NCBI GenBank assembly: GCA_028688755.1
Contig: JAQTXN010000001.1
Location: 1-51,313, forward strand
Direction of reading: 5' to 3'
Origin: Methylococcales bacterium
GTDB taxonomy: Bacteria; Pseudomonadota; Gammaproteobacteria; Methylococcales; Methylomonadaceae
Length of the DNA stretch: 51,313 nt
This document shows positions 6,088-47,282 of the stretch, in pieces (the stretch's first letter is position 1; the number at the start of each line of letters is the position of its first letter). The notes under the pieces are model-generated. The model saw only the letters and a list, made by a program, of their open reading frames with translations. It was not told the DNA's origin and searched no databases. A program made the translations under genes and the position numbers.

Positions 6088-6105
6088 CGTCAAAGAATAA
6101 CGTTT

Positions 6106-6324: not shown

Positions 6325-6670
6325 ACGTTTCGATGTGGTAAAAGTGCCATTCCCTTTTACGGATAAACAAGTCACTAAAACTCGCCCCGCTTTGGTTGTA
6401 TCTGACAAAAGTTTTAATGTTAGCGTGGGTCAATCTGTTATGGCGATGATAACGAGTGCAAAAAGTTCCACATGGCTATTTGATACAGATATTACGGATT
6501 TAACAGCAGCAGGATTGCCAGTTCCTTGTTTTATTCGAATGAAACTATTTACGATTGATAACCAGCTTGTCATCAACAAACTAGGGCGATTGTCACAGCG
6601 AGATTCTGTTGAATTTGAAAGAAATTTCGGAATGTTGCAAGGCACTAACAAAAATAATTCAACGTGTTAA
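6314..6670 (+). CDS. Type II toxin, MazF/PemK family endoribonuclease
   Basis: From GTG 6314: VTFERFDVVKVPFPFTDKQVTKTRPALVVSD...MAMITSAK...AAGLPVPCFIRMKLFTIDNQLV, which matches the PemK/MazF signature. The longer track ORF (6185..6670) would overlap most of the antitoxin and is rejected. Confidence 0.8.
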   Translation: MTFERFDVVKVPFPFTDKQVTKTRPALVVSDKSFNVSVGQSVMAMITSAKSSTWLFDTDITDLTAAGLPVPCFIRMKLFTIDNQLVINKLGRLSQRDSVEFERNFGMLQGTNKNNSTC

Positions 6671-6691
6671 TTTACAAATTTTAAAAATCAC

Positions 6692-13300: not shown

Positions 13301-13822
13301 GTCGCTATGACGGCGAATGCTATGCAAGGCGATAGAGAACGTTGCCTTGACGCGGGTATGGATGATTACATTTCAAAACCTATCGAAATTGAAAAATTAC
13401 AACAAACCTTAAAAAAATGGTTACTCGATACTTACGATAGTGTCGATGAAGTCAAAACTAACGACACAGAAATCGCTGCAATTCAAAACACGTCGCCTGC
13501 TATTGATATACGTCGAATGCTAAATTTATTTGATGGTGATAAAGAAATTATTGATGAATTATTTGACGTTTTTTATGAATCAATAGACCCGTTAAAAGAA
13601 AAATTAACCAATGCTGTCAAGACGAACAGTGAAACGATTACAGAAATTATTCATAACATTAAAGGTTCAAGCGCAAACATCGGCGCAGAAGTTTTGCGTG
13701 AATTGTGCGAAAAAGCAGAACGCGTTGTGGCAACAAAAAATTGGACTGAAATTGAAACATTCGCCATTCAAATTGAACAAGAATTAAATCGCGTTAAAGT
13801 CTTTATTGAAAACAATAAATAA
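10343..13822 (+). CDS. Hybrid sensor histidine kinase (Cache-like periplasmic domain, 2 PAS, HisKA, HATPase, degenerate receiver, REC, HPt)
   Basis: Two TM segments flank a Cache-like region (DDWGVWLSAYAPIFDSSGKLDGILGIDVS). PAS/PAC blocks are present. H-box SHEIRTPMNG. N/G boxes NAIKFT, DNGIGI, GGTGLGLSI. REC VLLVEDN...LMDCQMPIMDG...K. HPt IIHNIKGSSANIGA. Confidence 0.9.
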   Translation: MTTISSEKKPSWKRAAQAKKRTLTSITRAFYALTILGVLVITIVTLVQVDRFLQNELHFRIRDLVNVMATNIDGDMHRQIRTIDDSKTAEYLKLKNNLQEMRQRGTEIANAYTMRKMDDGTIVFIVDGSAKDQNEIGDVYPNKSVTATLLNAFNATLQSHEVYIEPQIYKDDWGVWLSAYAPIFDSSGKLDGILGIDVSAQSIQTHQFESIVIISVTSFIVVIITLPFVFRLMNFIKVMTTELEQVNFELKRQQYALNQHAIVSIADKTGRIVYINDKFAQISGYLAHELIGQDHRLLNSGVHPKEFFMTMWETIRNGKVWHSDICNRAKDGHLYWVQSTIVPFLDANGKIESYISMRTDISAQKEMEQAAVKSEEWQRTVLNNLGDGVYLLNLNGQLTYLNETGERLFGYKFAELKDKKVHDILHHHRPDGSFLSSQACPILLNMHKQIEYKSDDELFFRKDGTCFSASVSCTPLFESSKLVGVVVCFRDISEQRIIQLQLIEAKDAAEQATKVKSEFLSTMSHEIRTPMNGIMGMTDLLLDTPLDAEQLEFTTIIKNSSNALLGIINDILDFSKIEAGQFELENIGFSFNDVIDGSNDVIAPRAHEKALSLISYVDPKIPEHLLGDPMRLRQIVLNFLSNAIKFTDEGTVLIRAILKKRVGKKCWVRIEITDNGIGISEEAQQRLFQPFSQADSSTTRKYGGTGLGLSICKRLIELMHGRIGVESELGHGSTFWMEVPFKLANNVAEHVMTSHKLKNKVMLVLGYNEGHHEIYVSYLNEWGVDVHSYDNISETPALLEQVKDNAKSYDAILLAGLVFDELLNVVQLLRAEEAFAQVPIIVCQPSREPEVRHKLLNAGANQILITPVKQSTLFDGLIEVFYHETHTHVATKTILTHFAANAGQKHRVLLVEDNTVNQRIAVRLLEKMGLDVDIANNGQEAFDVLTTNHDYALVLMDCQMPIMDGFVATRLIRHHESNHNFIPVPIVAMTANAMQGDRERCLDAGMDDYISKPIEIEKLQQTLKKWLLDTYDSVDEVKTNDTEIAAIQNTSPAIDIRRMLNLFDGDKEIIDELFDVFYESIDPLKEKLTNAVKTNSETITEIIHNIKGSSANIGAEVLRELCEKAERVVATKNWTEIETFAIQIEQELNRVKVFIENNK

Positions 13823-32149: not shown

Positions 32150-32350
32150 TTAAAGTACGGTTACTTCTTCAGCTTGTGGACCTTTTTGACCTTGAGTCAC
32201 TGTGAATTGGACTTTTTGTCCTTCATCTAATGATTTGAAGCCTGAACCAGCGATATTACGGAAGTGAACGAATACATCTGGACCACTTTCTTGTTGAATA
32301 AAACCGAAACCTTTTTCAGCGTTGAACCACTTAACTGTACCTGTTGCCAT
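32150..32350 (-). CDS. cspA: Cold-shock protein, CspA family
   Basis: [30 protein letters not shown] contains the RNP1/RNP2 motifs; 66 aa. Confidence 0.95.
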
Positions 32351-32500
32351 TGTTGTAGCCTTTTTAAAAAATTTTGAAAACCCTTGCGGGTGGTAGAGCT
32401 GTGAAATTAAAGATTACTTCATGGATTAAGCAGGACGAGCGGTACAACTAAAACTTCGTGAAGATAAGCATAACGGTAAATCTATTTCGAGCTGGCTGCG

Positions 32501-32528
32501 ATTTTATAGACTTATTGGTATAAGTCAA
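32501..32528 (-). promoter_or_regulatory. Candidate sigma70 promoter for the csp gene, giving a 5' leader of about 145 nt
   Basis: On the - strand: TTGACT (32528-32523), a 16-nt spacer, then TAAAAT (32506-32501). The long untranslated leader is as expected for cspA-type genes. Confidence 0.4.
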
Positions 32529-32556
32529 TGAATTTTCTATGACAAATTCATTTCAG

Positions 32557-32982
32557 TTAATCCCAGCAACCTGCTGTATCGGGTGAGGTGCCATTTGCCC
32601 CTTTTTCACCTGTATTTTTAAGTGTCAATGTGCCACATACATCAGAGGTTTGTGCGCCATCTGGCGTTGCTGTGAGCGTGTAAGAAGTGGCATCAGACAC
32701 CAAACTTAATGTGTACGTTTTCGTCCCACCATCGGTAGGAACTTGATTAGCAAAAATCTGAGACATATCTGTGCCATCCGTTCCAGCTTTGTAACTATTA
32801 TTTTCAACGCGCCACTGTTCCATTGCCGTCGCAAAAGACACTAACGCGCCTTGCGCTTCAACACGTTTAGCTTTTCTAACGTGACTTTGATAACTTGGAT
32901 AACCCACACTCGTTAAAATCCCAACAATCGCCACTGCAATCATCAATTCAATTAACGTAAAACCCTTTTGTTTAGTTTTCAT
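32557..32982 (-). CDS. Type IV pilin (PilE/PilA-like major or minor pilin)
   Basis: Class III signal and N-methylation motif KQKGFTLIELMIAVAIVGIL. C-terminal disulfide loop C...C (CGTLTLKNTG...AGCWD). GGAG RBS upstream. Confidence 0.9.
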   Translation of the reverse strand: MKTKQKGFTLIELMIAVAIVGILTSVGYPSYQSHVRKAKRVEAQGALVSFATAMEQWRVENNSYKAGTDGTDMSQIFANQVPTDGGTKTYTLSLVSDATSYTLTATPDGAQTSDVCGTLTLKNTGEKGANGTSPDTAGCWD

Positions 32983-33463
32983 TTTTTACTCCGCTACGAA
33001 AGCCCGTTTTTTTTAAAATTTTAGTGCTGTAAAGCACGTCGTGACCTAAATTGAACTCGCCTAATAATACGACAATTTGCCCAATTTGGTGATGCACATC
33101 AGCTTCACTTTTGCCATGAACCATTGCAAATAAATTGTAATTCCAATCGGGTAAATGGCGCGGACGATGATAACAATGGCTCACAAATGGCAATCGTCCA
33201 ATGATTTCACCCAATAAATCCACGCGCTCATCTGGCACATTCCAAACGGTCATGCCGTTAAAGGTGTAGCCTAATTTGTAATGATTTGGCACGGCACCAA
33301 TGCGGCGAATGACACCATTTTTCTGCATTGCCTCAAATCGCGCCATGACGGTTTCAACAGGCAAATTCAATTGTTCTGCAACCGCATGATAAGGTTTTGA
33401 AACGAGCGGCAAACCTGCTTGTGTGGCTCTCATAATTTGCAAATCAATTTCTGAAAAATCCAT
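32972..33463 (-). CDS. Siroheme decarboxylase subunit, NirH/AhbB-like (AsnC-fold)
   Basis: IRRIGAVPNHYKLGY...VSHCYHRPRHLPDWNYNLFAMVHG...LYSTKILKKTG closely follows the NirH-type signature as I recall it. Confidence 0.7.
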   Translation of the reverse strand: MDFSEIDLQIMRATQAGLPLVSKPYHAVAEQLNLPVETVMARFEAMQKNGVIRRIGAVPNHYKLGYTFNGMTVWNVPDERVDLLGEIIGRLPFVSHCYHRPRHLPDWNYNLFAMVHGKSEADVHHQIGQIVVLLGEFNLGHDVLYSTKILKKTGFRSGVKNEN

Positions 33464-33919
33464 TTATGCCTCCAACTTTAAACCAACAAAATACTCGTTA
33501 ATTTTTGGCATATTAAAAACGTGTAAACCTGTTTGCAGCTCAATTTTTTCAAGTGTTTCGTCGAGTTGCAGCGGTGTTTCGGTTGCGACGACAAACCACA
33601 TATTTAATTCATGATTACGCTGATAGTTATGTGCGACTTCGGGAAACGCATTGACGATTTCAATGACTTTTTCAAAATCCGCGTCAGGAACTTTCAGTGC
33701 AGCAAGCGTTAACGCACCGCCCATTTTCTCAGCATGATATAACGCACCAAAACGAGTGAGCGTGCCATTTTCAAGCAATTTTTTTAACCGATTTAACACA
33801 TCGTCTTCAGTTAAACCTAATTCATTTGCTACTTGCAAATACGGCTCATCACAAATCGGAAAGCCATCTTGCAAATGATTTATCAAGCTCGCATCAATTT
33901 CGTCGTAATGTTTAGTCAC
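33464..33919 (-). CDS. Siroheme decarboxylase subunit, NirG/NirD/AhbA-like (AsnC-fold)
   Basis: GTG start. LINHLQDGFPICDEPY...LTRFGAL...VAHNYQRNHELNMWFVV matches the NirD/NirG-type motif HNYxRxxxxNxWF. Its stop abuts the next gene's ATG. Confidence 0.7.
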   Translation of the reverse strand: MTKHYDEIDASLINHLQDGFPICDEPYLQVANELGLTEDDVLNRLKKLLENGTLTRFGALYHAEKMGGALTLAALKVPDADFEKVIEIVNAFPEVAHNYQRNHELNMWFVVATETPLQLDETLEKIELQTGLHVFNMPKINEYFVGLKLEA

Positions 33920-34820
33920 GTTTTTTTCTCGCTAATTTTTTTGCAGCTTTTTCGGCGCGAATAATTTCAAGTTCAGCCATTTCTCGTTCAATCATTTCAG
34001 GCGTTTCAAGCGTTATTTTGCCCAATATTGTGGTGCGTAATTCGCCGATTAAAATTTTCGACACTTGGTCTACATTGATTTTTCCACCTGATTTCAAGCA
34101 ACCGCGTTTTCTGCCAATGATGTTGAGTAATTCCGTTTCATTTTCAGGCACGGTTTCGAGTTGATAACGCGCTTTGACGAATTCAGGATAATCGCGCAAC
34201 AAAAATTCTGCTGTCCACGAAGCAACATCTTCATGCGTAAAAGCGGTGTCTTTAATTGCACCCGTTGCGGCTAAACGATAACCGCTGTTTTGATTCTCGA
34301 TATTTCCCCAAAGCACACCAGGTGTATCAAATAAAACCAACCCATCGCCCAAATCAATACGTTGCTGATGTTTTGTCACCGCTGGTTCATCGCCTGTTTT
34401 GGCAATGGTTCGACCTGCTAACACGTTAATAATGGTCGATTTTCCCACATTCGGAATACCTGTAATCAGCGCGTGCAACGGTTTTGAGCGACTTTCTAAA
34501 CGTGGCACTAATTTATGGCAAAGCGAAGTGAGTTGTTTGATTTTATCGGTTTGATTCATCGCAACGGCTAAGGTTTTAACGCCTTTTTCGCGTTCAAGAT
34601 ATTCTTGCCATTCTTGCGTGCGCGAATCGTCTGCTAAATCGCATTTGCTTAATACTTTAATGCACGGTGTATCGCCGCGAAGTTTTGCGAGAGCAGGATT
34701 TTGACTACTAAATGGAATTCTCGCGTCGATGATTTCAATCATTAAATCAACGTGTTCAAGCGCAGCTTTAATTTCGCGGCTAGCTTTGTGCATGTGTCCT
34801 GGATACCACTGAATGAGCAT
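33912..34820 (-). CDS. rbgA: Ribosome biogenesis GTPase A (YlqF/RbgA, circularly permuted GTPase)
   Basis: MLIQWYPGHMHKA start. G4 SKCDL precedes G1 GIPNVGKST and G3 DTPG, the permuted order. The track start at 34856 is a TTG inside the intergenic repeat, so ATG 34820 is preferred. Confidence 0.85.
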   Translation of the reverse strand: MLIQWYPGHMHKASREIKAALEHVDLMIEIIDARIPFSSQNPALAKLRGDTPCIKVLSKCDLADDSRTQEWQEYLEREKGVKTLAVAMNQTDKIKQLTSLCHKLVPRLESRSKPLHALITGIPNVGKSTIINVLAGRTIAKTGDEPAVTKHQQRIDLGDGLVLFDTPGVLWGNIENQNSGYRLAATGAIKDTAFTHEDVASWTAEFLLRDYPEFVKARYQLETVPENETELLNIIGRKRGCLKSGGKINVDQVSKILIGELRTTILGKITLETPEMIEREMAELEIIRAEKAAKKLARKKRD

Positions 34821-34850
34821 TTTGTTTCCGATGTTGAATAAAAAACTATT

Positions 34851-34965
34851 CGCCAAATTGTGTAGGATTCTGCTTTAAGAATGAACCCAAACACAGGGCG
34901 ACTAAAACAAACAGTGTAACTGAACAACAGATAAATAGGCGATTTTCACTACGAAAACCGATGAT
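34851..34965. repeat. Copy A of a direct repeat of about 115-125 bp (partner at 40476..40599)
   Basis: Hand alignment: CGCCAAAT(T/C)GTGTA(G/A)GATTCTGCTTT, AAACACAGG, CTAAAA, a perfect 16-mer ACAGTGTAACTGAACA, GGCGATTTTC(A/G)CTAC and a terminal ATGAT are shared in the same order and orientation. Confidence 0.7.
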
Positions 34966-34981
34966 GAAGTGGCTCGTTGCT

Positions 34982-36196
34982 TTACGTTTTAATAATGCTT
35001 GGCATACTACGTTTTTTTATCAAACAACGTCTTTTTTGTCGCCAACGGATAATGCCTGTTACATAAAGAATCAACGGTACAAAACCAGTGAATAGAACAA
35101 TAAGTTGCCCCGTAAATCCAAATGCTTCCCCGCTATGTAATGACAATTGCCATTCATCAAAAATATCACCTGATGTTTGTTTAGTTTTATCCGTGTGGTA
35201 AATGATTTCACCGCTATGAGCATCAACGACGATTATTTTTTGTCTACTTGAAAACAAAATTTTATTGCCTTGGTGTTTGAAAATTTTAAAAATCTCATTC
35301 TCGTGAGTAGGGAAAAAAACCGTTGTGACTACGCCTTCTGGAATAGTTTGATTGGCAATATCTATGGCTTGATTTACGGTAATATGAGTGTGGTTAAAAT
35401 TGGAAATAGCTGGCGGACGGTGAAAAGAAAGCGTTTTCTCTGTTAGGGGTGAAAACAGATTCACTAAGCCGTGGATTTGTTTTGGAAATGGCACTTCAAA
35501 ACTCAAATAAGCTCCAGTGAATAACATGATAAACACTATTATTGCTGGGTACACACCAAAAACTTTATGCAAATCATAGTTAAATCGCTCTTCGCTTGCC
35601 CAACGTTTGATAGTCAATGCCGCTTTTAAATGATTGCGATTAGGACACCAAAGTACGATGCCGCTGATTAGCGAAATTAGCATCAATAGCGCAATGGAGC
35701 CTGTCAAAATAGCCCCAATTTCACCAAGCCAAAAAGAATCATGAAAACGGTAAATCAACGCCATCAAAGGTCCATGCCAACTACAACAAGAGTCAAAGTT
35801 TCCCCAAAGTCGTTGACCTAATACTTTAGCTGTGTAGGGATTTACAAAGATTTGGTAATTGTCCGATGACGGCGGAATGTTGTAAGCAACTTCAAATACA
35901 TCGCCTGTTTGCTGGGGAAAAGAAAGTCTGTTTGCAAACACGCCACCTTGCGGAATAGCCGTTTTGGCAGAAGCAATAATTTCCTCAATTGGACGAAATG
36001 GACTGTCATTAGGCACATTAACTTGCATCATATTTGCGTTTAGCCAAGTATCAATTTGGGACGCAAACACAATTAAACTGCCGCTTAAACTGATAAGTAC
36101 GAAGACGGCACCAACAAAAAGTCCCAAGTACAAATGCACATCTAACCAAAGTTTGCGGCGTGTTTTAAGTTTTACTGAACACCTGTTTTTTTTCAT
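34982..36196 (-). CDS. PepSY-associated TM-helix domain protein (PiuB-like, siderophore-utilisation associated)
   Basis: N-terminal RRKLWLDVHLYLGLFVG, 4 TM helices with a large periplasmic loop, and a C-terminal basic tail. It lies adjacent to a TonB-dependent receptor. Confidence 0.8.
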   Translation of the reverse strand: MKKNRCSVKLKTRRKLWLDVHLYLGLFVGAVFVLISLSGSLIVFASQIDTWLNANMMQVNVPNDSPFRPIEEIIASAKTAIPQGGVFANRLSFPQQTGDVFEVAYNIPPSSDNYQIFVNPYTAKVLGQRLWGNFDSCCSWHGPLMALIYRFHDSFWLGEIGAILTGSIALLMLISLISGIVLWCPNRNHLKAALTIKRWASEERFNYDLHKVFGVYPAIIVFIMLFTGAYLSFEVPFPKQIHGLVNLFSPLTEKTLSFHRPPAISNFNHTHITVNQAIDIANQTIPEGVVTTVFFPTHENEIFKIFKHQGNKILFSSRQKIIVVDAHSGEIIYHTDKTKQTSGDIFDEWQLSLHSGEAFGFTGQLIVLFTGFVPLILYVTGIIRWRQKRRCLIKKRSMPSIIKT

Positions 36197-36270
36197 GTTG
36201 GTAAAAGATTGGAAAATTGTTTGGATTAGCGGATTTTCTAATTGTCGAAAATCCGCTGTAACTAACCTTT

Positions 36271-38670
36271 TTAATACTCCAATTTCAACGACCCCATCAC
36301 ACTAAGAGGATTACCAGTGATGGTATTACTCGCGCCTTGCGTCGTAGCACCTGAATAGTATTCTTTGTCTAACACATTATTGAGATTCACTTGTGTAGTT
36401 AAGCGTGTTTTACCAATCGGTTTAACATAAGCTGCCATCATGTCCATTCGTACATAACCAGGCAATTCCAATGTACTCCACGATTGACCAGCTCTTGAAT
36501 CAACGACAATACCACCGATTCCAGCCTTAAATTCTGGGGTAAATTGATACGTCCCCCATAAACTTGCCTGATGCTCTGGCACATTTATAAGGCGTTTTCC
36601 TAATGCACCATTAGTATTTGCACCATTTTGAGTAACTCTTGCATCCGTATAGGCATATGTCAAAATCAAATTAAGCTCATCCGTAATACGACCTTTAATA
36701 TCCGCCTCAATCCCTTGACTTCTAGCCTCTCCTGCCGTGACTGAAAAGCCTGGGTGTTTGGAATCTGGTAGCTGTACATTCTGTTTAGTTAAATGATAGA
36801 AAGATACGGTACTTGAAAGTCTTTGATCAAAGAATTCCGTTTTAAAGCCAGCTTCGAATTGCTCACCAATTTCAGGTTTAATGGGTTGATTCCCATATAC
36901 CATTCCCGTATTAGCACTGCCAAGCGACTCGGTATAGTTGCCATATAGTGAAAGCCATGACATAGGTTGATACAGTACACCTACTCTTGGACTGAATTTC
37001 TGATTGTCACTACTTTTATAATTGGCACTCGCCACATCATAGTCGCCCTTACCAAAATCAGAACCTCTTCCAAATGTTGCCCAATCGTAGCGACCACCGC
37101 CTAAAATATGGAGTTTTTCAAATAAGGTAATATGGTCTTGGAAATATACGCCAAACCATTCTTCTTTTTCTTTTGTCGCGTAGTCATAAGGCGATGAATA
37201 AATGGCTGCTAGGTTAGCCGTGTTGTATGTCGGATTATAAATATCAACCGTGCCGCCAGTATTATTCCCACTACAACATGCAAATCTATTGTCGTCTGCT
37301 TTTCTGGTTCTACGCGAAAAATCACCACCGACTAATACTTCATGTTTTGTATTTAAAATATCAACATGACCAATCAAATCCAAATTAGTTCCATAGGTGT
37401 CGTGGTATGCCATACCAGTGATAGGAAATCTCTGTAACATGGTAGAGTCAATCATGTATTGCGGTTGAAGATCGAAATAATTTATATCCCAATCTTCGTG
37501 CATAAACCGATTTTTAACTTGCCATTTATCATTGAATTTATAAGACCAATCAAACGCCGTTAGGATGGAATTCATAACAGGTCCTTTATTCAAATCTCCG
37601 AGAAAAGTATTTAATGCCACTGGTGCAGGACGACTGCCAATAGTCGGTATCCCATTATCATTCACCCGTTTTTCATGTTTATATTCTAATTCTGCATTTG
37701 CTTCGAATCGATCGTTAGGTGTCCAACTAAGTTTAGGAGCCAAAAACACGCGCTCATCGCCAACATATTTTTTGAAAGATCCCATATCTTGATAAGACGC
37801 ATCAAGGCGATATTCTAGTGTTTTAGCCTCATCAATTGGACCAGTAGCTGCTGCGGTGGTGCGGTATTGGTCATAGTTTCCAAATTGTTGCTGCAATGAA
37901 TAATAAGGTGTATTGGAAGCTTTTTTAGTCACAACGTTGACCATGCCACCTGGTTGGATTTGACCATATAAAACCGCTGCGGGACCTTTTATAATTTCGA
38001 GTTCTTCAATATTGGACGGATCAGAATAGTTGGTGTAGCGACGAAGTCCGTTGCGATAGGTAGAAAAATTGGTACTAAAGCCGCGAATATTAAAATTTTC
38101 ATACAGATCGCCATACTCAGGATTTCGCTGTACGCCACTGACATTTTTAGTTAATGCGTCCGAGACTTCGACATCTTGCTGGTCATCCATGATGGCTTTT
38201 GATACGACTTGAATGTTGACAGGCGTTTCCATAATCGGCGTATTCGTTTTTGTGGCAGAACTGGAGTTTGTTGCACTGTAAGCGGTTGGGTCATTTTCAA
38301 TTTTTCCAACAACGGTCATTGGCTTTAACGTAATCGTATCGAGATTATCCGTTGTTGACGATTCTGATTTCGTCGCTTTAATGGCAACGGTGTTATCGCT
38401 GGTAAAATCAAAAACCAAACCACTTTGCGCGAGCATTTTTTGCAAGGCTTCCCGTTTACTCAAATGCCCTTTGATTGCTGGACTGCTCTTATTCGCAAGT
38501 GCTTCGTCGGCATAAAACGTTTGCAAACCCGTTTGTTGATTCAATTGCTCTAACGCCGACGCTAAAGGTTGTGCGGGGATGTTGAAATCAAATTTGTTGT
38601 CATCAGCAAGGGCTATCGAAATACACGCGGCAAGCGGTAGACTAGCGATAAATTTTGGAAAAGTACGCAT
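36271..38670 (-). CDS. TonB-dependent siderophore receptor with N-terminal signalling (STN) domain (FecA/FpvA-type transducer)
   Basis: Signal peptide MRTFPKFIASLPLAACISIALA and an STN domain (FNIPAQPLASALEQLNQQTGLQ). Plug motifs (ETPVNIQVV, IEELEIIKGPAAVLYG), a long beta-barrel and a terminal ...GSLKLEY. Start set at ATG 38670 after an AGGAG RBS. Confidence 0.9.
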   Translation of the reverse strand: MRTFPKFIASLPLAACISIALADDNKFDFNIPAQPLASALEQLNQQTGLQTFYADEALANKSSPAIKGHLSKREALQKMLAQSGLVFDFTSDNTVAIKATKSESSTTDNLDTITLKPMTVVGKIENDPTAYSATNSSSATKTNTPIMETPVNIQVVSKAIMDDQQDVEVSDALTKNVSGVQRNPEYGDLYENFNIRGFSTNFSTYRNGLRRYTNYSDPSNIEELEIIKGPAAVLYGQIQPGGMVNVVTKKASNTPYYSLQQQFGNYDQYRTTAAATGPIDEAKTLEYRLDASYQDMGSFKKYVGDERVFLAPKLSWTPNDRFEANAELEYKHEKRVNDNGIPTIGSRPAPVALNTFLGDLNKGPVMNSILTAFDWSYKFNDKWQVKNRFMHEDWDINYFDLQPQYMIDSTMLQRFPITGMAYHDTYGTNLDLIGHVDILNTKHEVLVGGDFSRRTRKADDNRFACCSGNNTGGTVDIYNPTYNTANLAAIYSSPYDYATKEKEEWFGVYFQDHITLFEKLHILGGGRYDWATFGRGSDFGKGDYDVASANYKSSDNQKFSPRVGVLYQPMSWLSLYGNYTESLGSANTGMVYGNQPIKPEIGEQFEAGFKTEFFDQRLSSTVSFYHLTKQNVQLPDSKHPGFSVTAGEARSQGIEADIKGRITDELNLILTYAYTDARVTQNGANTNGALGKRLINVPEHQASLWGTYQFTPEFKAGIGGIVVDSRAGQSWSTLELPGYVRMDMMAAYVKPIGKTRLTTQVNLNNVLDKEYYSGATTQGASNTITGNPLSVMGSLKLEY

Positions 38671-38765
38671 AAAAATCTCCTCTAAAGTTAAATGGTTTAA
38701 AAACACTCCATAAAACTTGAGACGAGTTTATTTAATTGCACCGCCACTTTTTAGTAAAAAGATTT

Positions 38766-39728
38766 TTATTTTCCCGAAACCAAAACTGTTCGCTCGCCCA
38801 TTTTTGTAAATTTAATCGGCAACGCGCTGGCAATCGTATTGAGCGCAAGACTTAAATTATCGGCAGGGAATGTGCCGCTGACACTGAGGTTTTGTGGCGT
38901 ATTTTCAGACAGTTGCAATTCAACATCGTGATAACGCGCTAATTGCGCTAAAACGTCACGCAACGGTTGTTTTTTGAAAATCAATTTTCCTGTTTGCCAT
39001 GCGGTAACGCTATTCACATCGGTTTTTTCCAGCGGCGCAATTTGCCCTTGCTCGTTATAACTGGTTTGCAAACCAGCAATAATGTGACGCGGCGTTGGAT
39101 TTTCAGATGTCGTAATTTGCACTTCGCCTTCTAAAACCGTGACAGCCACTTGATTGTCGTGCTGATAAACATTAAAACGGGTTCCAACATCTTCAATCAC
39201 GCCTTTTGCCGCCGCAACGGTGAAGGGTTTTTTATCATTGTGAACGACAGAAAATAACGCTTCGCCTCGAATAAAATTAACCTCTCTGCCCATAAAACCG
39301 TAATGCACGTTTAATTGCGTATCCGTATTTAAAATAATTTGCGAACCATCTGCTAATTGAACCGTTTGTCGTTCACCTTTTGCTGTTTGATAGGTTTGCG
39401 TGGTGGCGTGAAAATACAAATACGGCGAAATCCCCATCATCAAAATAACTGAAAATGCCAATGCTAAACGTGGTGAAAACAAGCGTGGTGGCGCGGGTGG
39501 GCGTTGCAAATAATGGCGCGCGGCGGTGAGTTCTTGATTGATGAGCGGTTCAACAGAATTTAAGTTCTGCCAAAAATTTTGCACGTCTTGATAAGCCTGT
39601 GCGTGCGCGGGTTTTTTAAGCAACCATCTGGAAAAATCGCGGCGTTCTTCTTCTGTACAATCGTGAGATTGTAAACGTGTGAGCCAAAAACTTGCCTGTT
39701 GATGAATAGAATTCGATTTTGTTTTCAT
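38766..39728 (-). CDS. fecR: FecR-family anti-sigma factor / transmembrane sensor
   Basis: N-terminal anti-sigma region (QASFWLTRLQS...W), a single TM and a periplasmic FecR domain (Y.T.KGERQTVQLADGSQIILNTDT...). It sits between the ECF sigma and the TBDR. Confidence 0.85.
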   Translation of the reverse strand: MKTKSNSIHQQASFWLTRLQSHDCTEEERRDFSRWLLKKPAHAQAYQDVQNFWQNLNSVEPLINQELTAARHYLQRPPAPPRLFSPRLALAFSVILMMGISPYLYFHATTQTYQTAKGERQTVQLADGSQIILNTDTQLNVHYGFMGREVNFIRGEALFSVVHNDKKPFTVAAAKGVIEDVGTRFNVYQHDNQVAVTVLEGEVQITTSENPTPRHIIAGLQTSYNEQGQIAPLEKTDVNSVTAWQTGKLIFKKQPLRDVLAQLARYHDVELQLSENTPQNLSVSGTFPADNLSLALNTIASALPIKFTKMGERTVLVSGK

Positions 39729-39786
39729 AAAGAAGTTTGAGGCGATAAAGGCAGGCTATGAAAACGATGATTATAAACGAACACGC

Positions 39787-40299
39787 TTACAAATCCTGAC
39801 CGACGCTTTTAGCAAAACAATGCGCGAGTGCTTTCGCGCAATAACGTTCAACCGTGCGTTGCGGTAAATTCAATGCTTGAGCAATTTCGCTGTGCGATTT
39901 GCCATCAAAACGATGCAATAAAAAAACATGACGATACACGTCAGGCAGTTCGTTTAAGGCTTGCAAACACTGTTTCAAAATTTGTTGACTATCCAAATGA
40001 GCGGCAATTTCAGGTTGTGGCGAATGCACATTATCAAACACAACTTCGGTGTCGGAATCAAAATGCTTTTTATGCACTTTATCGTGGCGATGATAATCAA
40101 AACCTAAATTTGCAATGATTTTATAAAGATACGCGCGGGGATTTTGAATGGTTGCAGAATCAGGATGTTGCAACAAACGTAAATAGGCTTCTTGTACTAA
40201 ATCTTCTGCGTCAATTTGACTAAAGCTGGAATTCGCAAAACTTAATAACTCTAAACGATGATGACGAAATAGCGTCTCGAAAAAACGGTGTTTGGACAT
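39787..40299 (-). CDS. fecI: ECF sigma-70 factor, FecI-like
   Basis: Region 2 (DAEDLVQEAYLRLL...YLYKIIANLGFDYHR) and region 4 (LPDVYRHVFLLHRFDGKSHSEIAQALNLPQRTVERY). ATG 40299 is preferred over the TTG at 40323. Confidence 0.85.
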   Translation of the reverse strand: MSKHRFFETLFRHHRLELLSFANSSFSQIDAEDLVQEAYLRLLQHPDSATIQNPRAYLYKIIANLGFDYHRHDKVHKKHFDSDTEVVFDNVHSPQPEIAAHLDSQQILKQCLQALNELPDVYRHVFLLHRFDGKSHSEIAQALNLPQRTVERYCAKALAHCFAKSVGQDL

Positions 40300-40475
40300 A
40301 ACGGGCAGTAAAAAATAATTCAATTACCGTTTGTTAAGGCAACAACTGAGCCGATGAAATTAAAACAACGCTAAGTCAGTAAGTTATCGATTTAGAAAAT
40401 AAGGGGTTATTTTTTAATTAGGGGATATGCCGCAGGAGTGAGCGATATGACACATACCAATGTTGAAAGAATTAT

Positions 40476-40599
40476 CGCCAAATCGTGTAAGATTCTGCTT
40501 TTGAAATGAATCGAAACACAGGCAAAGTCTCTAAAATTAGAATGAACAGTGTAACTGAACAGCAGAAAAACGGGCGATTTTCGCTACAAAATCTATGAT
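40476..40599. repeat. Copy B of the direct repeat of about 115-125 bp; contains the recD start codon at its 3' end
   Basis: Same blocks as copy A, with two short insertions. My hand alignment gives roughly 80 percent identity outside the indels. The terminal ATGAT is the recD ATG (40595) plus two nt. Confidence 0.7.
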
Positions 40600-42235
40600 T
40601 GAAACGCAAAACTTTTCCCGTCTGGACACGGCTTTTGCAACATTTTTTAGCGAGTCAGCTCCGATTTTTGAAGCAGAAAAAATAGCTTTAAAAAACTTAC
40701 TCACACAACTTTCGTGGGCGCATTATCAAGGTAATACTTGTTTAAAATTAACCGCCGCGCAAACGCAATTGTTATTTAACGCAAAATTAGCCTCGTCATC
40801 TGAAAACGCAGAAAGCATTTTGCCGTTACATATCGATGAATTTGGGCATTTGTATTTGCGTCGTTATTGGGATTATGAACAGCGTTTGATTGTTAAATTA
40901 CGCGAAATGAAACGAAGTCATTCCTCTGTTTCAAATTTAGAAGAATTGCTCGACACTTTTTTTCCCGTGCTTGACACAGAAAAAGATTGGCAACGCGAAG
41001 CCGCAAAATGCGCCGTTCAGCAAAATTTCACGATTATCACGGGTGGCCCTGGAACGGGGAAAACGACAACTGTGGTAAAAATTCTCGCTATTTTGCAAAC
41101 CTTGAACACGCTAAAACCGTTACATATCGCGCTTGCCGCGCCAACGGGAAAAGCGGCAATGCGTTTGCAAGAATCGATTACAAAAAGCAAAAGTGCGTTG
41201 CAATGTTCGCAAGAAATCAAAGATAAATTGCCCGAAAATGTCACCACCATTCACCGTTTGCTGGGTGCAAAACCACCATCACCGTATTTTCGATACAACG
41301 AAAAAAATCTACTTCCTTACGATTTAATTGTGATTGATGAAGCGTCAATGATTGATTTGGCGATGATGAGCAAATTAGTGGCTGCAATCAAACCTTCCGC
41401 ACGTTTGATTTTACTTGGCGATAAAGAACAGCTTGCTTCGGTAGAATCTGGGACAGTTTTAGCCGATTTGACGCAAGCCTTGGCAGAAAATACCGTTGAA
41501 CTCAAAAAAACGTATCGATTTAAAGAGGAAATCAAAGCCTTTGCCGAAGCGATAAATACAAAAAACGCGCCGCTTGCGTGGAAAATCTCGACACAAAAAA
41601 ACGACGTGATTGCACATTTAGGTGACGATTATTTGCATTATTTAGTCGAAAAACATCACGACTATTTTCATAAAATTAAACATGGCGCAGCATTTGAAGA
41701 AATTTACGCCGCGTTCAATCAATTCCAAATTTTATGCGCTCACCGTGAAGGCAAAAACAGCGTTTCAGATTTGAATTATCGTTTAGAAAAAGCGTTGCAC
41801 AACGAAAAAAAAATCCATTTAGCGTCGAATTGGTATGTCGGTAGACCCGTCATGATTACGCAAAATAATGCGGCACTACAGCTTTATAACGGCGATATTG
41901 GTTTATGTTTGCACGATGAAAAAGGCGACACAAAAGTTTTCTTTCCGCGTCCAGATGGTAGTTTTCAAGGCTTTTCACCTGCGCGTTTGCCGCCTTGCGA
42001 AACCGTTTTTGCCATGACCATTCATAAAAGCCAAGGCTCAGAATTCAACGAAGTTTGTGTGTGTTTGCCTGATTATCCACAAACGATTTTGACCAAAGAA
42101 CTGCTTTATACCGCGATTACTCGCGCTAAAGAACGTATAAAATTAGTTACCAGCGAAAAGATTTTTAATTTTACTGTTCAAGCAAGCGTCACTCGCGTTA
42201 CGGGTTTAGTGTCGCAATTTCAATCTATGCAATAA
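40595..42235 (+). CDS. recD: Exodeoxyribonuclease V alpha subunit (RecD, SF1 helicase)
   Basis: Walker A GGPGTGKTTTV, LIVIDEASMID, LLGDKEQLASVESG, TIHKSQGSEF and LLYTAITRAK. Confidence 0.9.
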   Translation: MIETQNFSRLDTAFATFFSESAPIFEAEKIALKNLLTQLSWAHYQGNTCLKLTAAQTQLLFNAKLASSSENAESILPLHIDEFGHLYLRRYWDYEQRLIVKLREMKRSHSSVSNLEELLDTFFPVLDTEKDWQREAAKCAVQQNFTIITGGPGTGKTTTVVKILAILQTLNTLKPLHIALAAPTGKAAMRLQESITKSKSALQCSQEIKDKLPENVTTIHRLLGAKPPSPYFRYNEKNLLPYDLIVIDEASMIDLAMMSKLVAAIKPSARLILLGDKEQLASVESGTVLADLTQALAENTVELKKTYRFKEEIKAFAEAINTKNAPLAWKISTQKNDVIAHLGDDYLHYLVEKHHDYFHKIKHGAAFEEIYAAFNQFQILCAHREGKNSVSDLNYRLEKALHNEKKIHLASNWYVGRPVMITQNNAALQLYNGDIGLCLHDEKGDTKVFFPRPDGSFQGFSPARLPPCETVFAMTIHKSQGSEFNEVCVCLPDYPQTILTKELLYTAITRAKERIKLVTSEKIFNFTVQASVTRVTGLVSQFQSMQ

Positions 42236-42238
42236 AAA

Positions 42239-43789
42239 ATGAAAAATAAATTAACGATTGATAAACGATTGCGCCAGCGCGTGTTACCGCTGATGTTTTT
42301 GATAATTACCTTGCTAATGTCAATGCTCCTTTTGATGCGAATTGACGGTGTGCAAAAACACAATTTAGACGTGGCGACCGAAGGCGCACGCAACATTTTT
42401 CGGATGATTGTTTTAACACGGCAGTGGAATGCAGATCATGGTGGTGTTTATGTTTTTGTCGATGAGAAAACACCTGTTAATGAGTATCTTGACCATCCGA
42501 AAAAAGTCATTGAAACAACAGAAAAAGAAAAGCTCACGTTATTAAATCCTGCTTACATGACGCGCCAAATCGCTGAATTAGCGCAAAACGACCCCGACAT
42601 ACATTTGCGCTTGCACATTACCAGTCTTAAACCGATTCGCCCACAAAACGCCGCAGATGCGTGGGAAGTTGAAGCGTTAAAACGCTTTGAAACAGGCGAG
42701 CAAGAAATTTCGAGCGTCGAAATTGAAAATGGACAGCGTTATTTGCGTTATATGTCGCCGTTGATGGTGAAAGAAAGTTGCCTTTTGTGTCATGAAAAAC
42801 AAGGTTATAAATTAGGCGATGTACGCGGCGGCATTAGCGTTAGTTTGCAAATGGAATCGATTGATAAATCCGTTCACCATGAAATCGTTGCCAGTGCTAT
42901 TAGTTACGCTGTCTCTTATGGCTTGCTCATTATGATTACTTGGGGCTTGATTGAATTGTTAGCGCGGCGTTGGCGGGCGTTAAATGACAACATCGAAATG
43001 CTTGAAACAACGCGCAACGAATTAGTTGAAAATGAAAAAATGGCTTCTTTGGGGCGATTAGTTTCAGGTTTTGCACACGAAATTAACACGCCTGTCGGTG
43101 TGGCGGTTGGCGCAATTAGTCACGGCGATGAAACCATTGCAACCTTAAAAACCTTGCTTGCAAAAGAAGAAGTTACCGAGCAAGAACTTAATCAACAACT
43201 CGATTATTTAAGTGAAGGGCATTATTTAGCGTTAGCCAATTTGCGTCGCGCCGCCGATTTGGTGCAACGTTTTAAACGTACTTCGATAGATAGAGATTCG
43301 CAACAAAAACGCGAATATCAACCCGCCGAACTCATTCAAGATGTTTTGACCACCTTGCATAATCAGTTAAAACGAACAGAAATTAGCGTCGAGGTGACTT
43401 GCTCGGAAAAATTAAAACTTTACGGTACACCAGGTTTATTAGAACAAGTGCTGACGAATTTAATTACCAACAGCATTTCGCACGGTTTTGATAATGGCAC
43501 CCGCGCAGGTAAAATTAGCATCAATGTGTCACAATCGAGCGCAAATCGATTGATTGTCGATTACCAAGATGATGGCGTTGGTATGAATGAAGATGTGAAA
43601 CAACAAGCATTTGAACCTTTCTTTACAACCAGTCGTGATAAAGGCGGCTCAGGCTTAGGTTTATATGTAATTTACAATATCGTCACACAACAAATGGCAG
43701 GTACCATTCAAATGACTTCTGTTTCAAATGCAGGCGTTCGTTTTCACATTGAATGTCCGATTGAAGCAATTCCCTATAATACGTTATGA
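42239..43789 (+). CDS. Sensor histidine kinase with DUF3365-type heme-c (CxxCH) periplasmic sensor domain
   Basis: TM, then NPAYMTRQI...ADAWEVEALKRF...RYMSPLMVKESCLLCHEKQGYKLGDVRGGISV (DUF3365-like with CLLCH), then a second TM. H-box FAHEINTP. HATPase N and G boxes (NLITNSISHG, DDGVGM, GGSGLGL). Confidence 0.85.
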   Translation: MKNKLTIDKRLRQRVLPLMFLIITLLMSMLLLMRIDGVQKHNLDVATEGARNIFRMIVLTRQWNADHGGVYVFVDEKTPVNEYLDHPKKVIETTEKEKLTLLNPAYMTRQIAELAQNDPDIHLRLHITSLKPIRPQNAADAWEVEALKRFETGEQEISSVEIENGQRYLRYMSPLMVKESCLLCHEKQGYKLGDVRGGISVSLQMESIDKSVHHEIVASAISYAVSYGLLIMITWGLIELLARRWRALNDNIEMLETTRNELVENEKMASLGRLVSGFAHEINTPVGVAVGAISHGDETIATLKTLLAKEEVTEQELNQQLDYLSEGHYLALANLRRAADLVQRFKRTSIDRDSQQKREYQPAELIQDVLTTLHNQLKRTEISVEVTCSEKLKLYGTPGLLEQVLTNLITNSISHGFDNGTRAGKISINVSQSSANRLIVDYQDDGVGMNEDVKQQAFEPFFTTSRDKGGSGLGLYVIYNIVTQQMAGTIQMTSVSNAGVRFHIECPIEAIPYNTL

Positions 43790-45342
43790 AAATTATCCGA
43801 AATACCGAGGCACCGACAGCAAGTGCAGATGAATCCCCGTTGCAACGTGTCGAAACGCCGCGTTACCAATGGAAAGTCTTAATCGTTGATGATGAACCCG
43901 ATGTTCGAACATTGACGCGAATTAGCTTGCGTGATTTTAGTTTTGCCAATCAAACGCTTGAATTTATTGAAGCCAGTTCAGCACGCGAAGCAAAAAATTT
44001 ATTGCAACAAAATAGCGATATTGCCTTAGCGTTAATTGACGTAGTGATGGAAACCGATGATGCAGGCTTAAAACTGGTTGAATATATTCGCAATGATTTA
44101 AAAAATGCCATGATTCGCCTTGTGATTCGAACAGGGCAACCAGGTTTAGCTCCAGAGCGTTACGTTATCGACCATTACGATATTGATGATTACAAAGACA
44201 AAACCGAATTAACCGCTGCGCGACTTTATACAACCGTGCGCTCGGCGTTAAAAGCGTATCGAGATTTGCAAATTATTGATACCAATCGTCGTGGTTTAGA
44301 ACGTGTGTTGCAAGCAACGCCAGCGATTTATCAATTAGGTCATTCGCCATTATCGGATTTTTTTAACGGCATGCTCACGCAAATGATTGGGCTTTGTCGA
44401 CTTTCAACGTCTAGTCATATTGGCTCACTTGAAGGCGCGATTATGATGCTTGATGAGGATGAGCCAAAACTTCGCGCTTCCACAGCACAATTTGTAAAAA
44501 GCCAACGCTTTGAAGAAATTCATCAGCAATGTATTCATGCCATTTTACGCGACGACGACCCGATTTCTAGCCTGCGAAATAGCTCTGAGGTATTGCCGCT
44601 CATTGTTTTAAATCAACCTGTTGGCTATATCTACATTGAACCGATTGAAATTTTGAGCGATGTTGATAGAAATTTAATCCATATTTTCGCGCGGCAATGT
44701 TCACAAGCCTTAGAAAATCATGAATTGCACGGCAACATTTTGGCATCGTTTGACAGTGCCATTGAGATGCTTGCTGAAATTGCCGAATACAAAGATCAAG
44801 CAACGGGTGGTCATGTGAATCGCCTTGATTGTTATACCCATGCCATTGCAATTGAAATGGGCATAGACCAAGAAGAAGCGATTCGTTATGGAAAAGCCAG
44901 TCGTTTGCACGATGTTGGAAAAGTGGGGATTCCCGATTACATTTTGACAAAACCCAGCAAATTAACGGTTGATGAATTTGAAATTATCAAAAAACATACG
45001 ACCTTAGGCGGCAATATCCTCAGCCACGACAAAGCGTTTACCTTGGCAAAACAAATTGCGCTTGGACATCATGAGTTTTGGGATGGTAGCGGTTATCCAC
45101 TCGGCATTAAATCAAAAGATTTACCGCTTGCTGTGCGAATTGTTTCTGTTGCCGATGTGTTTGATGCGATGGTGAGCTGGAGACCTTATAAAGAACCTTG
45201 GAGCATTCAAGAAGCGCGTGATGCCATTCAAGACGGTGCAGGCACACAATTTGACCCTGACGTTGTGAATGCTTTTTTAAAATTGCTCGACAGCGGTGAA
45301 TTTGAACTTGTTATTGCCAGAGCAAACGAAGCGTTATCTTGA
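43786..45342 (+). CDS. Response regulator REC + GAF-like middle domain + HD-GYP (c-di-GMP phosphodiesterase)
   Basis: REC (VLIVDDEPD...LIDVVMETDDAG...K), a central region of about 150 aa, then HD-GYP motifs HDVGKVGIPD and HHEFWDGSGYP. Its ATG overlaps the kinase stop (ATGA). Confidence 0.9.
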   Translation: MKIIRNTEAPTASADESPLQRVETPRYQWKVLIVDDEPDVRTLTRISLRDFSFANQTLEFIEASSAREAKNLLQQNSDIALALIDVVMETDDAGLKLVEYIRNDLKNAMIRLVIRTGQPGLAPERYVIDHYDIDDYKDKTELTAARLYTTVRSALKAYRDLQIIDTNRRGLERVLQATPAIYQLGHSPLSDFFNGMLTQMIGLCRLSTSSHIGSLEGAIMMLDEDEPKLRASTAQFVKSQRFEEIHQQCIHAILRDDDPISSLRNSSEVLPLIVLNQPVGYIYIEPIEILSDVDRNLIHIFARQCSQALENHELHGNILASFDSAIEMLAEIAEYKDQATGGHVNRLDCYTHAIAIEMGIDQEEAIRYGKASRLHDVGKVGIPDYILTKPSKLTVDEFEIIKKHTTLGGNILSHDKAFTLAKQIALGHHEFWDGSGYPLGIKSKDLPLAVRIVSVADVFDAMVSWRPYKEPWSIQEARDAIQDGAGTQFDPDVVNAFLKLLDSGEFELVIARANEALS

Positions 45343-45373
45343 TTTCTAGCCAATAAAACTAACGGAAATTTTC

Positions 45374-47035
45374 ATGTCACAAAACGCTACCATTCTTTTT
45401 GAGCCTGATGCTTATTTGTTGTCCGAACCCAAATTGATGGGGCGACAAGCAGCGGGAAATAGTTTTTTACGCGCCGCTGTTGCAGGGCGAAATAATGAGC
45501 CGCTGTTTGCTTATACGCCACATCAAAAATCGGCTGAAATCTTTGCGAATTTAGTAAAACAAATTGAACCTACTGCACAAGGTCAATGGATTCCAGCGGA
45601 TCGTTTAGATTTACTTTCACAAATTGGCACGCTGTATATGCCAGGGCCTGGTTTAGATGTGGCGGCGAAATTACGTTTAAGAGCAGGGTGCAATGCTTAT
45701 TCACTTGTGGGCGTAACGCATACCACTGCTTCACACCGCGCAATGGATGCGATTACAGGTTTGCTTGCTGCGCCTGTGATGCCGTGGGATGCGTTAATTT
45801 GCACGTCAACCGCCGTGTTAGAAACGGTGAAATTATTGCTCAATGCCGAAATCGAAGCCTTGCGTTGGCGTTTTGGTTCGCAAATTCAAATTACGCTGCC
45901 GCAATTACCTGTGATTCCGTTAGGCATTCATTGTGATGACTTTGATTTTTCAGCTGAAAATAAAGCCTCTGCGCGAGCGGCGTTGAATATCGGTGAAGAC
46001 GAAATCGTTTTAGTGTTCGTTGGGCGATTATCGTTTCATGCGAAAGCGCATCCTCATGCCATGTATCTTGCCGCGCAAGAAGTAGCGAAATCGACGGGCA
46101 AAAAAATCACATTTTTGCAATGCGGTTGGTTTGGTAATGATGCTATTCAAGCCAGTTTTATTGACGGTGCCGCGCAGTTTTGCCCCGATGTTCGTGCAGT
46201 TTTTGTGGACGGACGACATCCACAATTTTCACAGCAAAGTTGGGCGAGTGCGGATATTTTCATTTCGCTTTCTGACAATGTGCAAGAAACGTTTGGCATT
46301 ACGCCAATTGAAGCGATGGCGGCGGGTTTGCCTGTAATTGTGAGCGATTGGAATGGCTACAAAGATACCGTGCGTGACGGGATTGACGGTTTTCGAATTC
46401 CAACCTTTATGCCGCCACCTAATTTAGGTGAAAACTTTGCCAAAATGCACGAAGCAGGCACGCTGAATTACGATATTTATTGCGGTTTGAGTTGTCAAAC
46501 TATTTCTGTTTCGATGGTTTCGTTGGTCGAAAAATTAAAATTGCTGGTTGAAAATGAGACCTTGCGGCAAGAAATGGGCGTGGCAGGTAAAATTCGAGCA
46601 AAATCGCACTTTGATTGGCGCGTCGTTTATCCGCAATATCAAGCTCTGTACGCGCAATTGAAAACGTTACGTTTAACGGCGTTGCAAAATACAGATTGGC
46701 AAAAACAATTACAAACTGCACCCAATGTTGCGGCAAATCGCCTTGACCCGTTTTACAGCTTTGGACATTACCCAACGACGTTAATTCAGCCGCAAACGCA
46801 AGTTGTTTTGCAAGATAGTAATGCGCTGCAAACCTATCTTTCACTTATCAAAAATCCGCTGTTTAATTACGCGGGTCAAATTTTACCGAGTGTCGCAAGC
46901 GTTGAAAAAATAGTCATGGTTTTAAAAACGCCGTTGAGTATCGCAGAACTTTCGCCGCAAAGTGGTTTGGATTTAGGTGCGAGTGTTTTAGCTGTTTCGG
47001 TTTTGGCAAAAATGGATTTGGTACGTTTAAGTTAA
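45374..47035 (+). CDS. Glycosyltransferase, GT4 (group 1) family, with a C-terminal extension of about 150 aa
   Basis: GT-B C-terminal domain with the EX7E motif: ETFGITPIEAMAAGLPVIVSDWNGYKDTVRDGIDGF. Confidence 0.8.
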   Translation: MSQNATILFEPDAYLLSEPKLMGRQAAGNSFLRAAVAGRNNEPLFAYTPHQKSAEIFANLVKQIEPTAQGQWIPADRLDLLSQIGTLYMPGPGLDVAAKLRLRAGCNAYSLVGVTHTTASHRAMDAITGLLAAPVMPWDALICTSTAVLETVKLLLNAEIEALRWRFGSQIQITLPQLPVIPLGIHCDDFDFSAENKASARAALNIGEDEIVLVFVGRLSFHAKAHPHAMYLAAQEVAKSTGKKITFLQCGWFGNDAIQASFIDGAAQFCPDVRAVFVDGRHPQFSQQSWASADIFISLSDNVQETFGITPIEAMAAGLPVIVSDWNGYKDTVRDGIDGFRIPTFMPPPNLGENFAKMHEAGTLNYDIYCGLSCQTISVSMVSLVEKLKLLVENETLRQEMGVAGKIRAKSHFDWRVVYPQYQALYAQLKTLRLTALQNTDWQKQLQTAPNVAANRLDPFYSFGHYPTTLIQPQTQVVLQDSNALQTYLSLIKNPLFNYAGQILPSVASVEKIVMVLKTPLSIAELSPQSGLDLGASVLAVSVLAKMDLVRLS

Positions 47036-47282
47036 TCAAATGACTATGTGAATTGAACGACAAAAACCGCTTTTTTGTACAAAAAGAAGGGGGGGCTATG
47101 TAAAGCAGCATTACTTGTTTTGCACTACCAAATTTTTATTTATTATCTAACCCATTGTATTGTTGGATTTTTATTTTTGATGTGCAACTTTTCTGGAATT
47201 GCAAGAAATTACAAGGTTGGCGTATTGAAGTATTTTATAATGTTTCCTTAAATTTGAATTTTTGGAAAAATTTATAACCGCA

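Follow-up and report, generated by a model that had tools for sequence, protein, structure and literature searches.

How did a 5.5-kb island of four uptake genes come to lie between rbgA and recD, with much the same intergenic sequence repeated in direct orientation at its two ends and no gene for an integrase or transposase among its own? The locus belongs to an uncultured methane-oxidising bacterium of the order Methylococcales, and it was analysed within the 51-kb stretch at the start of contig JAQTXN010000001.1 (positions 1 to 51,313; hereafter the window). The island encodes a PepSY_TM membrane protein, a TonB-dependent receptor, a FecR-type anti-sigma factor, and a FecI-type sigma factor. 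An initial annotation, made by eye, had already pointed to diverged repeats around it. We found that the two repeats are copies of a single ~139-bp spacer between the divergent genes rbgA and recD. The likely explanation is that the module was acquired horizontally and entered this spacer by a recombinase-independent insertion in which the whole spacer was duplicated.

The sequences at 34828-34968 (copy A) and 40457-40603 (copy B) are homologous and in direct orientation. MAFFT gave a mean column identity of 81%, matching the ~80 percent estimated in the initial annotation, and blastn aligned the two copies over 145-148 columns at 75% identity including gaps (E = 2e-21). Two ungapped blocks, one of 57 nt at 81% identity and one of 54 nt at 83%, are separated by a 10-nt indel, and in a repeat search these blocks were the two longest direct-repeat families in the whole window. 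No third copy was found by blastn in the 51 kb. The same-orientation similarity that had been noticed between the two intergenic stretches was thus recovered by MAFFT, blastn, and the repeat search. The ~120-bp repeat originally placed at 34851-34965 and 40476-40599 is real but longer than described, and its perfect 16-mer is also one base longer, being the 17-mer AACAGTGTAACTGAACA at 34910-34926 and 40545-40561. Copy B holds a 10-nt insertion, AAAGTCTCTA. Both copies close in ATGAT, which starts a gene only in copy B, as had been stated; there it is the recD start (40595), and in copy A only a short open reading frame (ORF) begins with it, in antisense to the PepSY gene. The duplication, ~139 bp in all, spans the interval between a point 8 nt upstream of the rbgA ATG and one ~9 nt into recD. 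Copy A ends in a decayed recD start (ATGAT-GAA); copy B ends in the functional one and is decayed at its rbgA-proximal end.

A search with RecD identified two much closer relatives than any found with RbgA, at 90-91% amino acid identity, on Logan contigs from SRR33086898 (L083) and SRR21677133 (L082). The gene order in L083 is pilin-like-nirDL-nirDL-rbgA(-), a 137-bp spacer, and recD(+)-histidine kinase-response regulator-glycosyltransferase, which is the order in the window minus the island, with one spacer copy. The L082 contig starts 23 nt inside rbgA and has the same single spacer before recD. By blastn, L083 1-2633 aligned with window 32321-34956 and L083 2507-9090 with window 40457-47044; L083 2507-2633 matched both window copies. 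These contigs provide the empty site with one repeat that the initial annotation had proposed looking for in related strains. With their single spacer joining rbgA and recD, they also support its suggestion that these genes were formerly divergent neighbours. It had further proposed that the cassette landed with duplication of the recD 5′ region; the duplication stands, but the unit is essentially the entire spacer (~139 bp).

More distant genomes were less informative. We examined 80 related Methylococcaceae rbgA loci (~1.2 Mb) from GTDB species representatives, the best of which, by RbgA, come from freshwater Methylococcaceae metagenome-assembled genomes (MAGs) at 82-90% amino acid identity. 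What these 80 loci have in common with the window is only rbgA and the two nirDL genes, at 77-85% nucleotide identity; homology ends at the rbgA start, upstream of which different genes are found. No empty site was present among the 80 loci, which are too distant for testing an insertion hypothesis. Since rbgA-recD adjacency is missing in more distant relatives, it is confined to a narrow clade. An exact-protein look-up with the window RbgA and RecD gave no match; that with FecR gave a single exact match, on a Logan contig of the same strain (L081) that is 99.98% identical to the window. The window strain is the one sampled in SRR22315507.

The two spacer copies have drifted in complementary ways. 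Over the rbgA-proximal ~35 nt, identity to the L083 spacer is 0.91 for copy A and 0.72 for copy B. Over the other ~100 nt, the L082 and L083 spacers share 89-90% identity with copy B (0.89 for L083), and copy A reaches ~78-80% against copy B and both of these spacers (0.78 to L083 and 0.80 to copy B). Such a pattern would arise if each gene kept the functional part of its adjoining copy and the gene-distal parts drifted. Three-way distances between copy A, copy B, and L083 over the central ~100 columns placed ~0.16 substitutions per site on the copy A branch. Taken with the 4-fold-site divergence of the flanks, this drift suggests that the insertion dates approximately to the separation from the L082/L083 lineage. 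Between the window and L083, uncorrected 4-fold divergence was 0.24 (0.19-0.26) in the left flank (window 32557-34820) and 0.39 (0.35-0.40) in the right flank (40595-47035), a significant difference (Fisher p = 2e-5). The step in flank divergence falls exactly at the island. One flank may have a different recombination history, perhaps through import with the module or because the island blocks recombination tracts.

The module also occurs elsewhere. The nearest homologue, in MAG GCA_031970635.1 (L086) from a distant relative, shows 81.5% nucleotide identity over window 35034-40449 and sits between PEPCK and an AhpC-family gene, ~1.6 kb upstream of the L086 recD. PEPCK and AhpC are directly adjacent in a contig of ENA ERZ27280213 (L096, 1229-1282), which therefore supplies another empty site, for a locus other than rbgA/recD. 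Around the L086 module lies a 13-nt direct repeat, TTTAAGTAAAAAA, at 8178-8190 and 13650-13662 (0/500 shuffles reached its score). Homology between the window and L086 modules stops at the right-hand copy of TTTAAGTAAAAAA, at an A-run near the PepSY end (window ~35009); on the sigma side, the window module is ~35 nt shorter than that of L086. Divergence between the window and L086 at 4-fold sites is 0.43 for fecI, 0.37 for fecR, and 0.33 for the PepSY gene, and 0.61 for both the receptor gene and recD. Outside the receptor barrel, nucleotide identity is 87-91%, and in recD it is 74%. Module divergence (0.33-0.43) well below that of recD (0.61) argues for horizontal movement: by this comparison and by its second site, the module is demonstrably mobile and would have moved between lineages after their hosts diverged.

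The high divergence of the receptor gene is localised. Segments at 87-91% identity to L086 cover 38486-40285 and 35098-36294 (sigma factor, FecR, receptor N-terminus, and PepSY protein), and the receptor barrel (window ~36300-38300) is only 65-77% identical; this mosaic pattern suggests an exchange of the substrate-binding barrel through recombination within an otherwise conserved module. Neither GC and GC3 nor codon usage (93rd percentile) and tetranucleotides (84th percentile) distinguish the island from its flanks. The comparison of GC and codon usage that the initial annotation had proposed thus revealed no difference, and composition does not mark the island as foreign. Such unremarkable composition fits a donor within the family, and we infer horizontal acquisition of the module from a different lineage of Methylococcaceae. 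A plasmid origin was considered and rejected, as no plasmid carrying the module was found in PLSDB.

No mobility functions were detected. All four island genes have Pfam assignments other than integrase or transposase, no recombinase lies in or next to the module in either the window or L086, and no tRNA or tmRNA gene was found in the window; domain and tRNA searches therefore agree with the initial annotation that integrase, transposase, and tRNA are lacking. Terminal inverted repeats were absent from both the window and the L086 modules, the window ends matching each other no better than shuffled sequences (p = 0.97). The window and L086 insertion sites have no sequence in common. The length of the flanking duplication is not fixed either: it amounts to 139 bp at the window site and to 13 bp at the L086 site.

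The integrase, transposon, and dispersed-repeat routes fail on their defining features, and we infer a recombinase-free route. In such an event, two target joints ~139 nt apart, made in overlapping order, would have copied the whole spacer onto both sides of the module. This could have happened by replicative template switching (break-induced replication using microhomology) or by staggered nicking and fill-in, with a linear fragment captured at the nicks. The joints show short imperfect matches, AATGTTGAA in the spacer compared with AATTTTGAA in the L086 cassette flank on one side and an A/T run at the PepSY end on the other. The duplication would have given both flanking genes a complete upstream region, and intact upstream regions on both sides are probably the reason for the survival of this insertion. 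For as long as the copies remained almost the same, homologous recombination between them could also have removed the module precisely.

Several observations weigh against this interpretation. Microhomology at the joints is short and imperfect, and it was judged against L086, an 81-90% proxy for the donor; no donor >90% identical across the whole module was found. For the source organism, the counts of spacer and module copies are those of the 51-kb window. A consensus promoter scan of the spacer found no promoter, so that the keeping of one by both genes is presumed; likewise, when both copies and the L083 spacer were scanned for sigma-70 promoters, no result exceeded shuffle expectation. The comparison of host and cassette divergence depends on one host gene, recD, which is near saturation. 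The age implied by copy A drift is ambiguous because the two flanks differ (0.24 versus 0.39). Finally, the spacer sequences do not discriminate between gain in the window lineage and loss in the ancestor of L082 and L083, the four-sequence spacer tree having the same unrooted topology under both.

This last point bears on whether the module and two spacer copies might be ancestral, with the empty sites formed by recombination between the repeats that left one chimeric spacer. The L082/L083 spacer does resemble copy A at its left end and copy B elsewhere, as an A × B recombinant would, but insertion followed by decay of the gene-distal halves predicts the same chimeric pattern. Moreover, copy A has a private indel (+2 nt) and copy B has two (-2 and +10 nt), none of which is present in L082/L083, and no single crossover explains this. 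The position of the L086 module ~1.6 kb upstream of recD hints at an old linkage to that gene, and copy A has drifted (~0.16 per site) by no less than the per-lineage neutral divergence estimated from the left flank. Against these hints, the module is mobile, a second site and an empty-site relative for that site are known, and hosts differ less in the module than in recD. Because of this mobility and second site, gain in the window lineage is favoured over loss in L082/L083, though not proven, and we regard the reversed polarity as unlikely. An earlier duplicating insertion would still be needed under it, so that the timing but not the nature of the event would be altered. A different route to the same topology would be Campbell-type integration, in which a circle carrying the module and one spacer copy integrated by a single RecA-dependent crossover in the spacer. 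An insert between direct target copies, with a single copy at the empty site, is exactly the architecture expected of that event, and the tandem module arrays of other Methylococcales (L097 and L087) could release circles. The circle must already hold the spacer, however, which presupposes an earlier association of module and spacer and makes the reasoning circular; the spacer was found nowhere else searched, and no plasmid in PLSDB carries the module. We consider this route distinctly improbable.

Other explanations treat the repeat as an element in its own right. The initial annotation had offered recombination between two copies of a dispersed element as an alternative, and the copies are indeed intergenic, ~140 bp long, and equipped with an imperfect palindrome, as would suit an element similar to repetitive extragenic palindromes or miniature inverted-repeat transposable elements. 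Only two copies exist in the 51 kb, however, and none in the ~1.2 Mb of the 80 related rbgA loci; in JGI metagenomes, the two-block pattern had 0 matches, and a 19-mer was found on 5 contigs as seed-only chance matches. In L082/L083, the one copy present is the orthologous spacer at the corresponding position, and a dispersed element is scarcely credible. No better placed is selection on a duplicated function (a small-RNA pair, a riboswitch or leader, or a small peptide gene). Strong conservation of blocks in both copies (17-mer and palindrome) and the short ORFs that both carry could be read in that way, but a regulatory role as the rbgA/recD spacer explains the conservation, and alignment showed the short ORFs to be out of frame with each other and with L083. 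No Rfam match reached the gathering threshold or E <= 1, folding z-scores ranged from -1.0 to +0.6, and compensatory changes were seen in zero and two predicted pairs. Site-specific integration by a recombinase acting in trans would make the repeats attL and attR. Direct repeats do bracket a discrete module whose PepSY-side end is at the same position in the window and L086, but the rbgA/recD spacer and PEPCK/AhpC sites are unlike, the repeats measure 139 and 13 bp, the sigma-side ends lie ~35 nt apart, neither module copy has a recombinase in it or next to it, and no conserved core was found at the four junctions (window and L086), which makes integration in trans highly improbable. A more speculative proposal is that the sigma/FecR/TonB-transducer/PepSY modules of Methylococcales are mobile units that need no recombinase, have a 3′ end defined by the A-run, and relocate between genomes and sites with target duplications of variable length (13 and 139 bp), being copied by a replicative template switch or by RNA-templated (target-primed) copying of the operon transcript. 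The alternative to it is that the two insertions are unrelated accidents of illegitimate recombination; we think a dedicated mobile unit very unlikely. Recombinase-independent insertion with duplication of the spacer is thus the reading that we prefer.

The spacer itself has further features. An imperfect palindrome, TGTGTAAGATTC-N13-GAATCGAAACACA, is present in all four spacer copies (window 34860-34896 and 40485-40521; L083 2535-2572) and is likely to be a regulator-binding site of the rbgA/recD divergent control region. On the minus strand of copy A, 34940-34960 can form a 9-pair hairpin, CGGTTTTCG-TAG-TGAAAATCG, 22 nt past the PepSY stop codon. It was created by four changes from the ancestral spacer and, being terminator-like, might insulate rbgA from read-through. 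We rejected the proposal that a terminator evolved in copy A, as the hairpin count did not exceed that of shuffled sequences and the folding z-score was -0.44. Two extensions of the repeat were likewise rejected. A decayed first ~23 nt of rbgA had been considered next to copy B (40421-40456), but this stretch belongs to the cassette, with homology to L086, and resembles rbgA no better than shuffles do (p = 0.6). Extension of copy A by ~60 nt into the recD coding sequence, overlapping the PepSY 3′ end, was unsupported in register (p 0.24-0.67), with local alignments giving p = 0.007 for L082, p = 0.08 for L083, and p = 0.48 for copy B.

The domain searches bore out the gene calls of the initial annotation. 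The left flanking gene (33912-34820, minus strand) encodes the ribosome-biogenesis GTPase RbgA/YlqF (NCBIfam TIGR03596, 326.5 bits against a cut-off of 208.2), which has a Pfam MMR_HSR1 match and 97% amino acid identity to its L083 orthologue. The right flanking gene (40595-42235, plus strand) is recD, for the exodeoxyribonuclease V alpha subunit (TIGR01447, 502.6 bits against 310.15). The four island genes are all on the minus strand, and ORFs of at least 60 amino acids in the island are these genes and ORFs nested inside them, with none else. The sigma factor gene (39787-40299) encodes 170 amino acids with Pfam Sigma70_r2, r4_2, and extracytoplasmic function (ECF) matches and a TIGR02937 score above cut-off. 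It is followed by the gene for the FecR-type anti-sigma factor and signal transducer (38766-39728; Pfam DUF4880, FecR, and FecR_C) and by that for a transducer-type TonB-dependent siderophore receptor (36271-38670; Pfam Plug and barrel; TIGR01783, 319 bits against 223.5), called at 799 amino acids on L081. The N-terminal STN signalling domain of the receptor (E = 1.7e-6) scored 28.1, just below the Pfam cut-off of 28.4, and the best PDB match of the receptor was 8b43_A (CntO/ferrioxamine receptor FoxA; residues 22-786, E = 2e-61). Last in the operon is the gene for the FoxB-like PepSY_TM inner-membrane protein (34982-36196; PF03929, E = 6e-60), a putative periplasmic siderophore reductase, which matched PDB 7ABW over its full length (residues 18-391, E = 1.4e-16). 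That entry is named "PepSY domain-containing protein" and does not itself say FoxB, which we take it to be. In the available part of a preprint whose title refers to integral membrane siderophore reductases (bioRxiv 10.1101/2021.01.28.428567), FoxB is a Pseudomonas aeruginosa inner-membrane protein in siderophore uptake with a crystal structure. From the Pfam and NCBIfam assignments and the matches to the 7ABW and FoxA structures, the island is therefore classed as a Fox/Fec-type cell-surface-signalling xenosiderophore module.

Two zones lie at the margins of the island. The region upstream of the sigma gene (40300-40452, minus strand) is cassette borne, 85% identical to its L086 equivalent, and is presumed to hold the promoter and operator. 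A search of 40280-40620 for a Fur box gave no match of at least 12/19, with the E. coli consensus, which may not be that of the host. The left junction zone (34969-35008), of uncertain origin, takes in the last 8 codons of the PepSY gene and its stop (34982-34984). A role in the uptake of a copper chelator is also conceivable for such a module in a methanotroph; the available parts of two reports (PMC13038864 and PMC12914433) tie pairs of PepSY_TM proteins and TonB-dependent transporters to copper.

A motif containing GATATG/CATATC lies at the outer edge of the region upstream of the sigma gene (window 40424-40452, GATATGCCGC..GCGATATGAC). The same motif marks each module start in L097 (104-139, 6080-6115, and 11985-12000), where it is an inverted repeat with perfectly matching 10-nt arms, GCGTGATATG-N16-CATATCACGC; it may act as an operator or have a bearing on module boundaries. 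Other Methylococcales (L097 1-16844, L098, and L087) carry tandem arrays of three to four sigma-FecR-TonB receptor-PepSY modules, some of them broken up by toxin-antitoxin genes. Beside rbgA, two adjacent genes for NirD/L-like siroheme decarboxylases (AsnC type; window 32972-33919) are present in all close relatives, which suggests a capacity for heme d1 or alternative heme biosynthesis in this methanotroph clade. In L096, genes for a ZorA-like (Zorya-type) protein, an OmpA-like protein, and a WYL-domain regulator (2694-7657) lie between SnoaL and recD, which are adjacent in L086. In Methylococcaceae, the region upstream of recD seems to be a hotspot of variation.

The locus offers a clean natural example of a self-regulated uptake operon entering a chromosome without element-encoded machinery, with one joint located to within a few bases. 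The evidence covers an occupied site and two empty ones, a second insertion locus for which an empty counterpart is also known, and signs of horizontal movement. Duplication of a divergent spacer is one way in which compact divergent promoters could tolerate insertions, reversibly so for as long as the repeats stay similar. For methanotroph ecology, receptors for xenosiderophores (possibly chalkophores) would be strain variable, exchanged between lineages, and subject to barrel swapping. The value of the case lies in its documentation and in the lead that it gives for a broader survey.

Several known systems resemble parts of this arrangement. In the ferrioxamine (fox) system, the gene order is FoxI-FoxR-FoxA-FoxB, and P. 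aeruginosa FoxI-FoxR-FoxA-FoxB and Fec-type (FecI/FecR/FecA) signalling have the same four components as the island. The likeness is at the family level, as the island proteins score below the FoxA, FecI, and FecR equivalog cut-offs and the substrate is not assignable from sequence. Islands set between attL and attR by tyrosine or serine integrases likewise place an accessory block between direct repeats and have an empty site with a single copy. Here, in contrast, there is no integrase and no tRNA or tmRNA target, the repeat is the whole 139-bp spacer instead of a short core, and a second insertion of the module lies at an unrelated site with a 13-bp repeat. Transposons and insertion sequence (IS) composites also duplicate their target around the insert, typically over 2-15 bp; the duplication here is 139 bp, with no transposase and no terminal inverted repeats.

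Closer in topology is Campbell-type insertion-duplication, used in insertion-duplication mutagenesis, in which heterologous DNA comes to lie reversibly within duplicated target homology. The island has the same topology, but nothing points to a circular vector or to a spacer already present on the incoming DNA. In mechanism, the nearest processes are microhomology-mediated break-induced replication and fork stalling and template switching (MMBIR/FoSTeS), both of which are microhomology-mediated template switching, and homology-facilitated illegitimate recombination (HFIR). Reported HFIR events usually delete recipient DNA rather than duplicating it, and the island duplicates. HFIR, as defined in the available part of PMC3240628, and template switching likewise bring in foreign DNA without element-encoded enzymes, through joints at short imperfect matches. 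The step in flank divergence at the island (0.24 versus 0.39) is also HFIR-like, as if one flank had come with the insert. Set beside these systems, the rbgA-recD island is a well-documented insertion whose target duplication is unusually long, but it does not represent a novel type of system.

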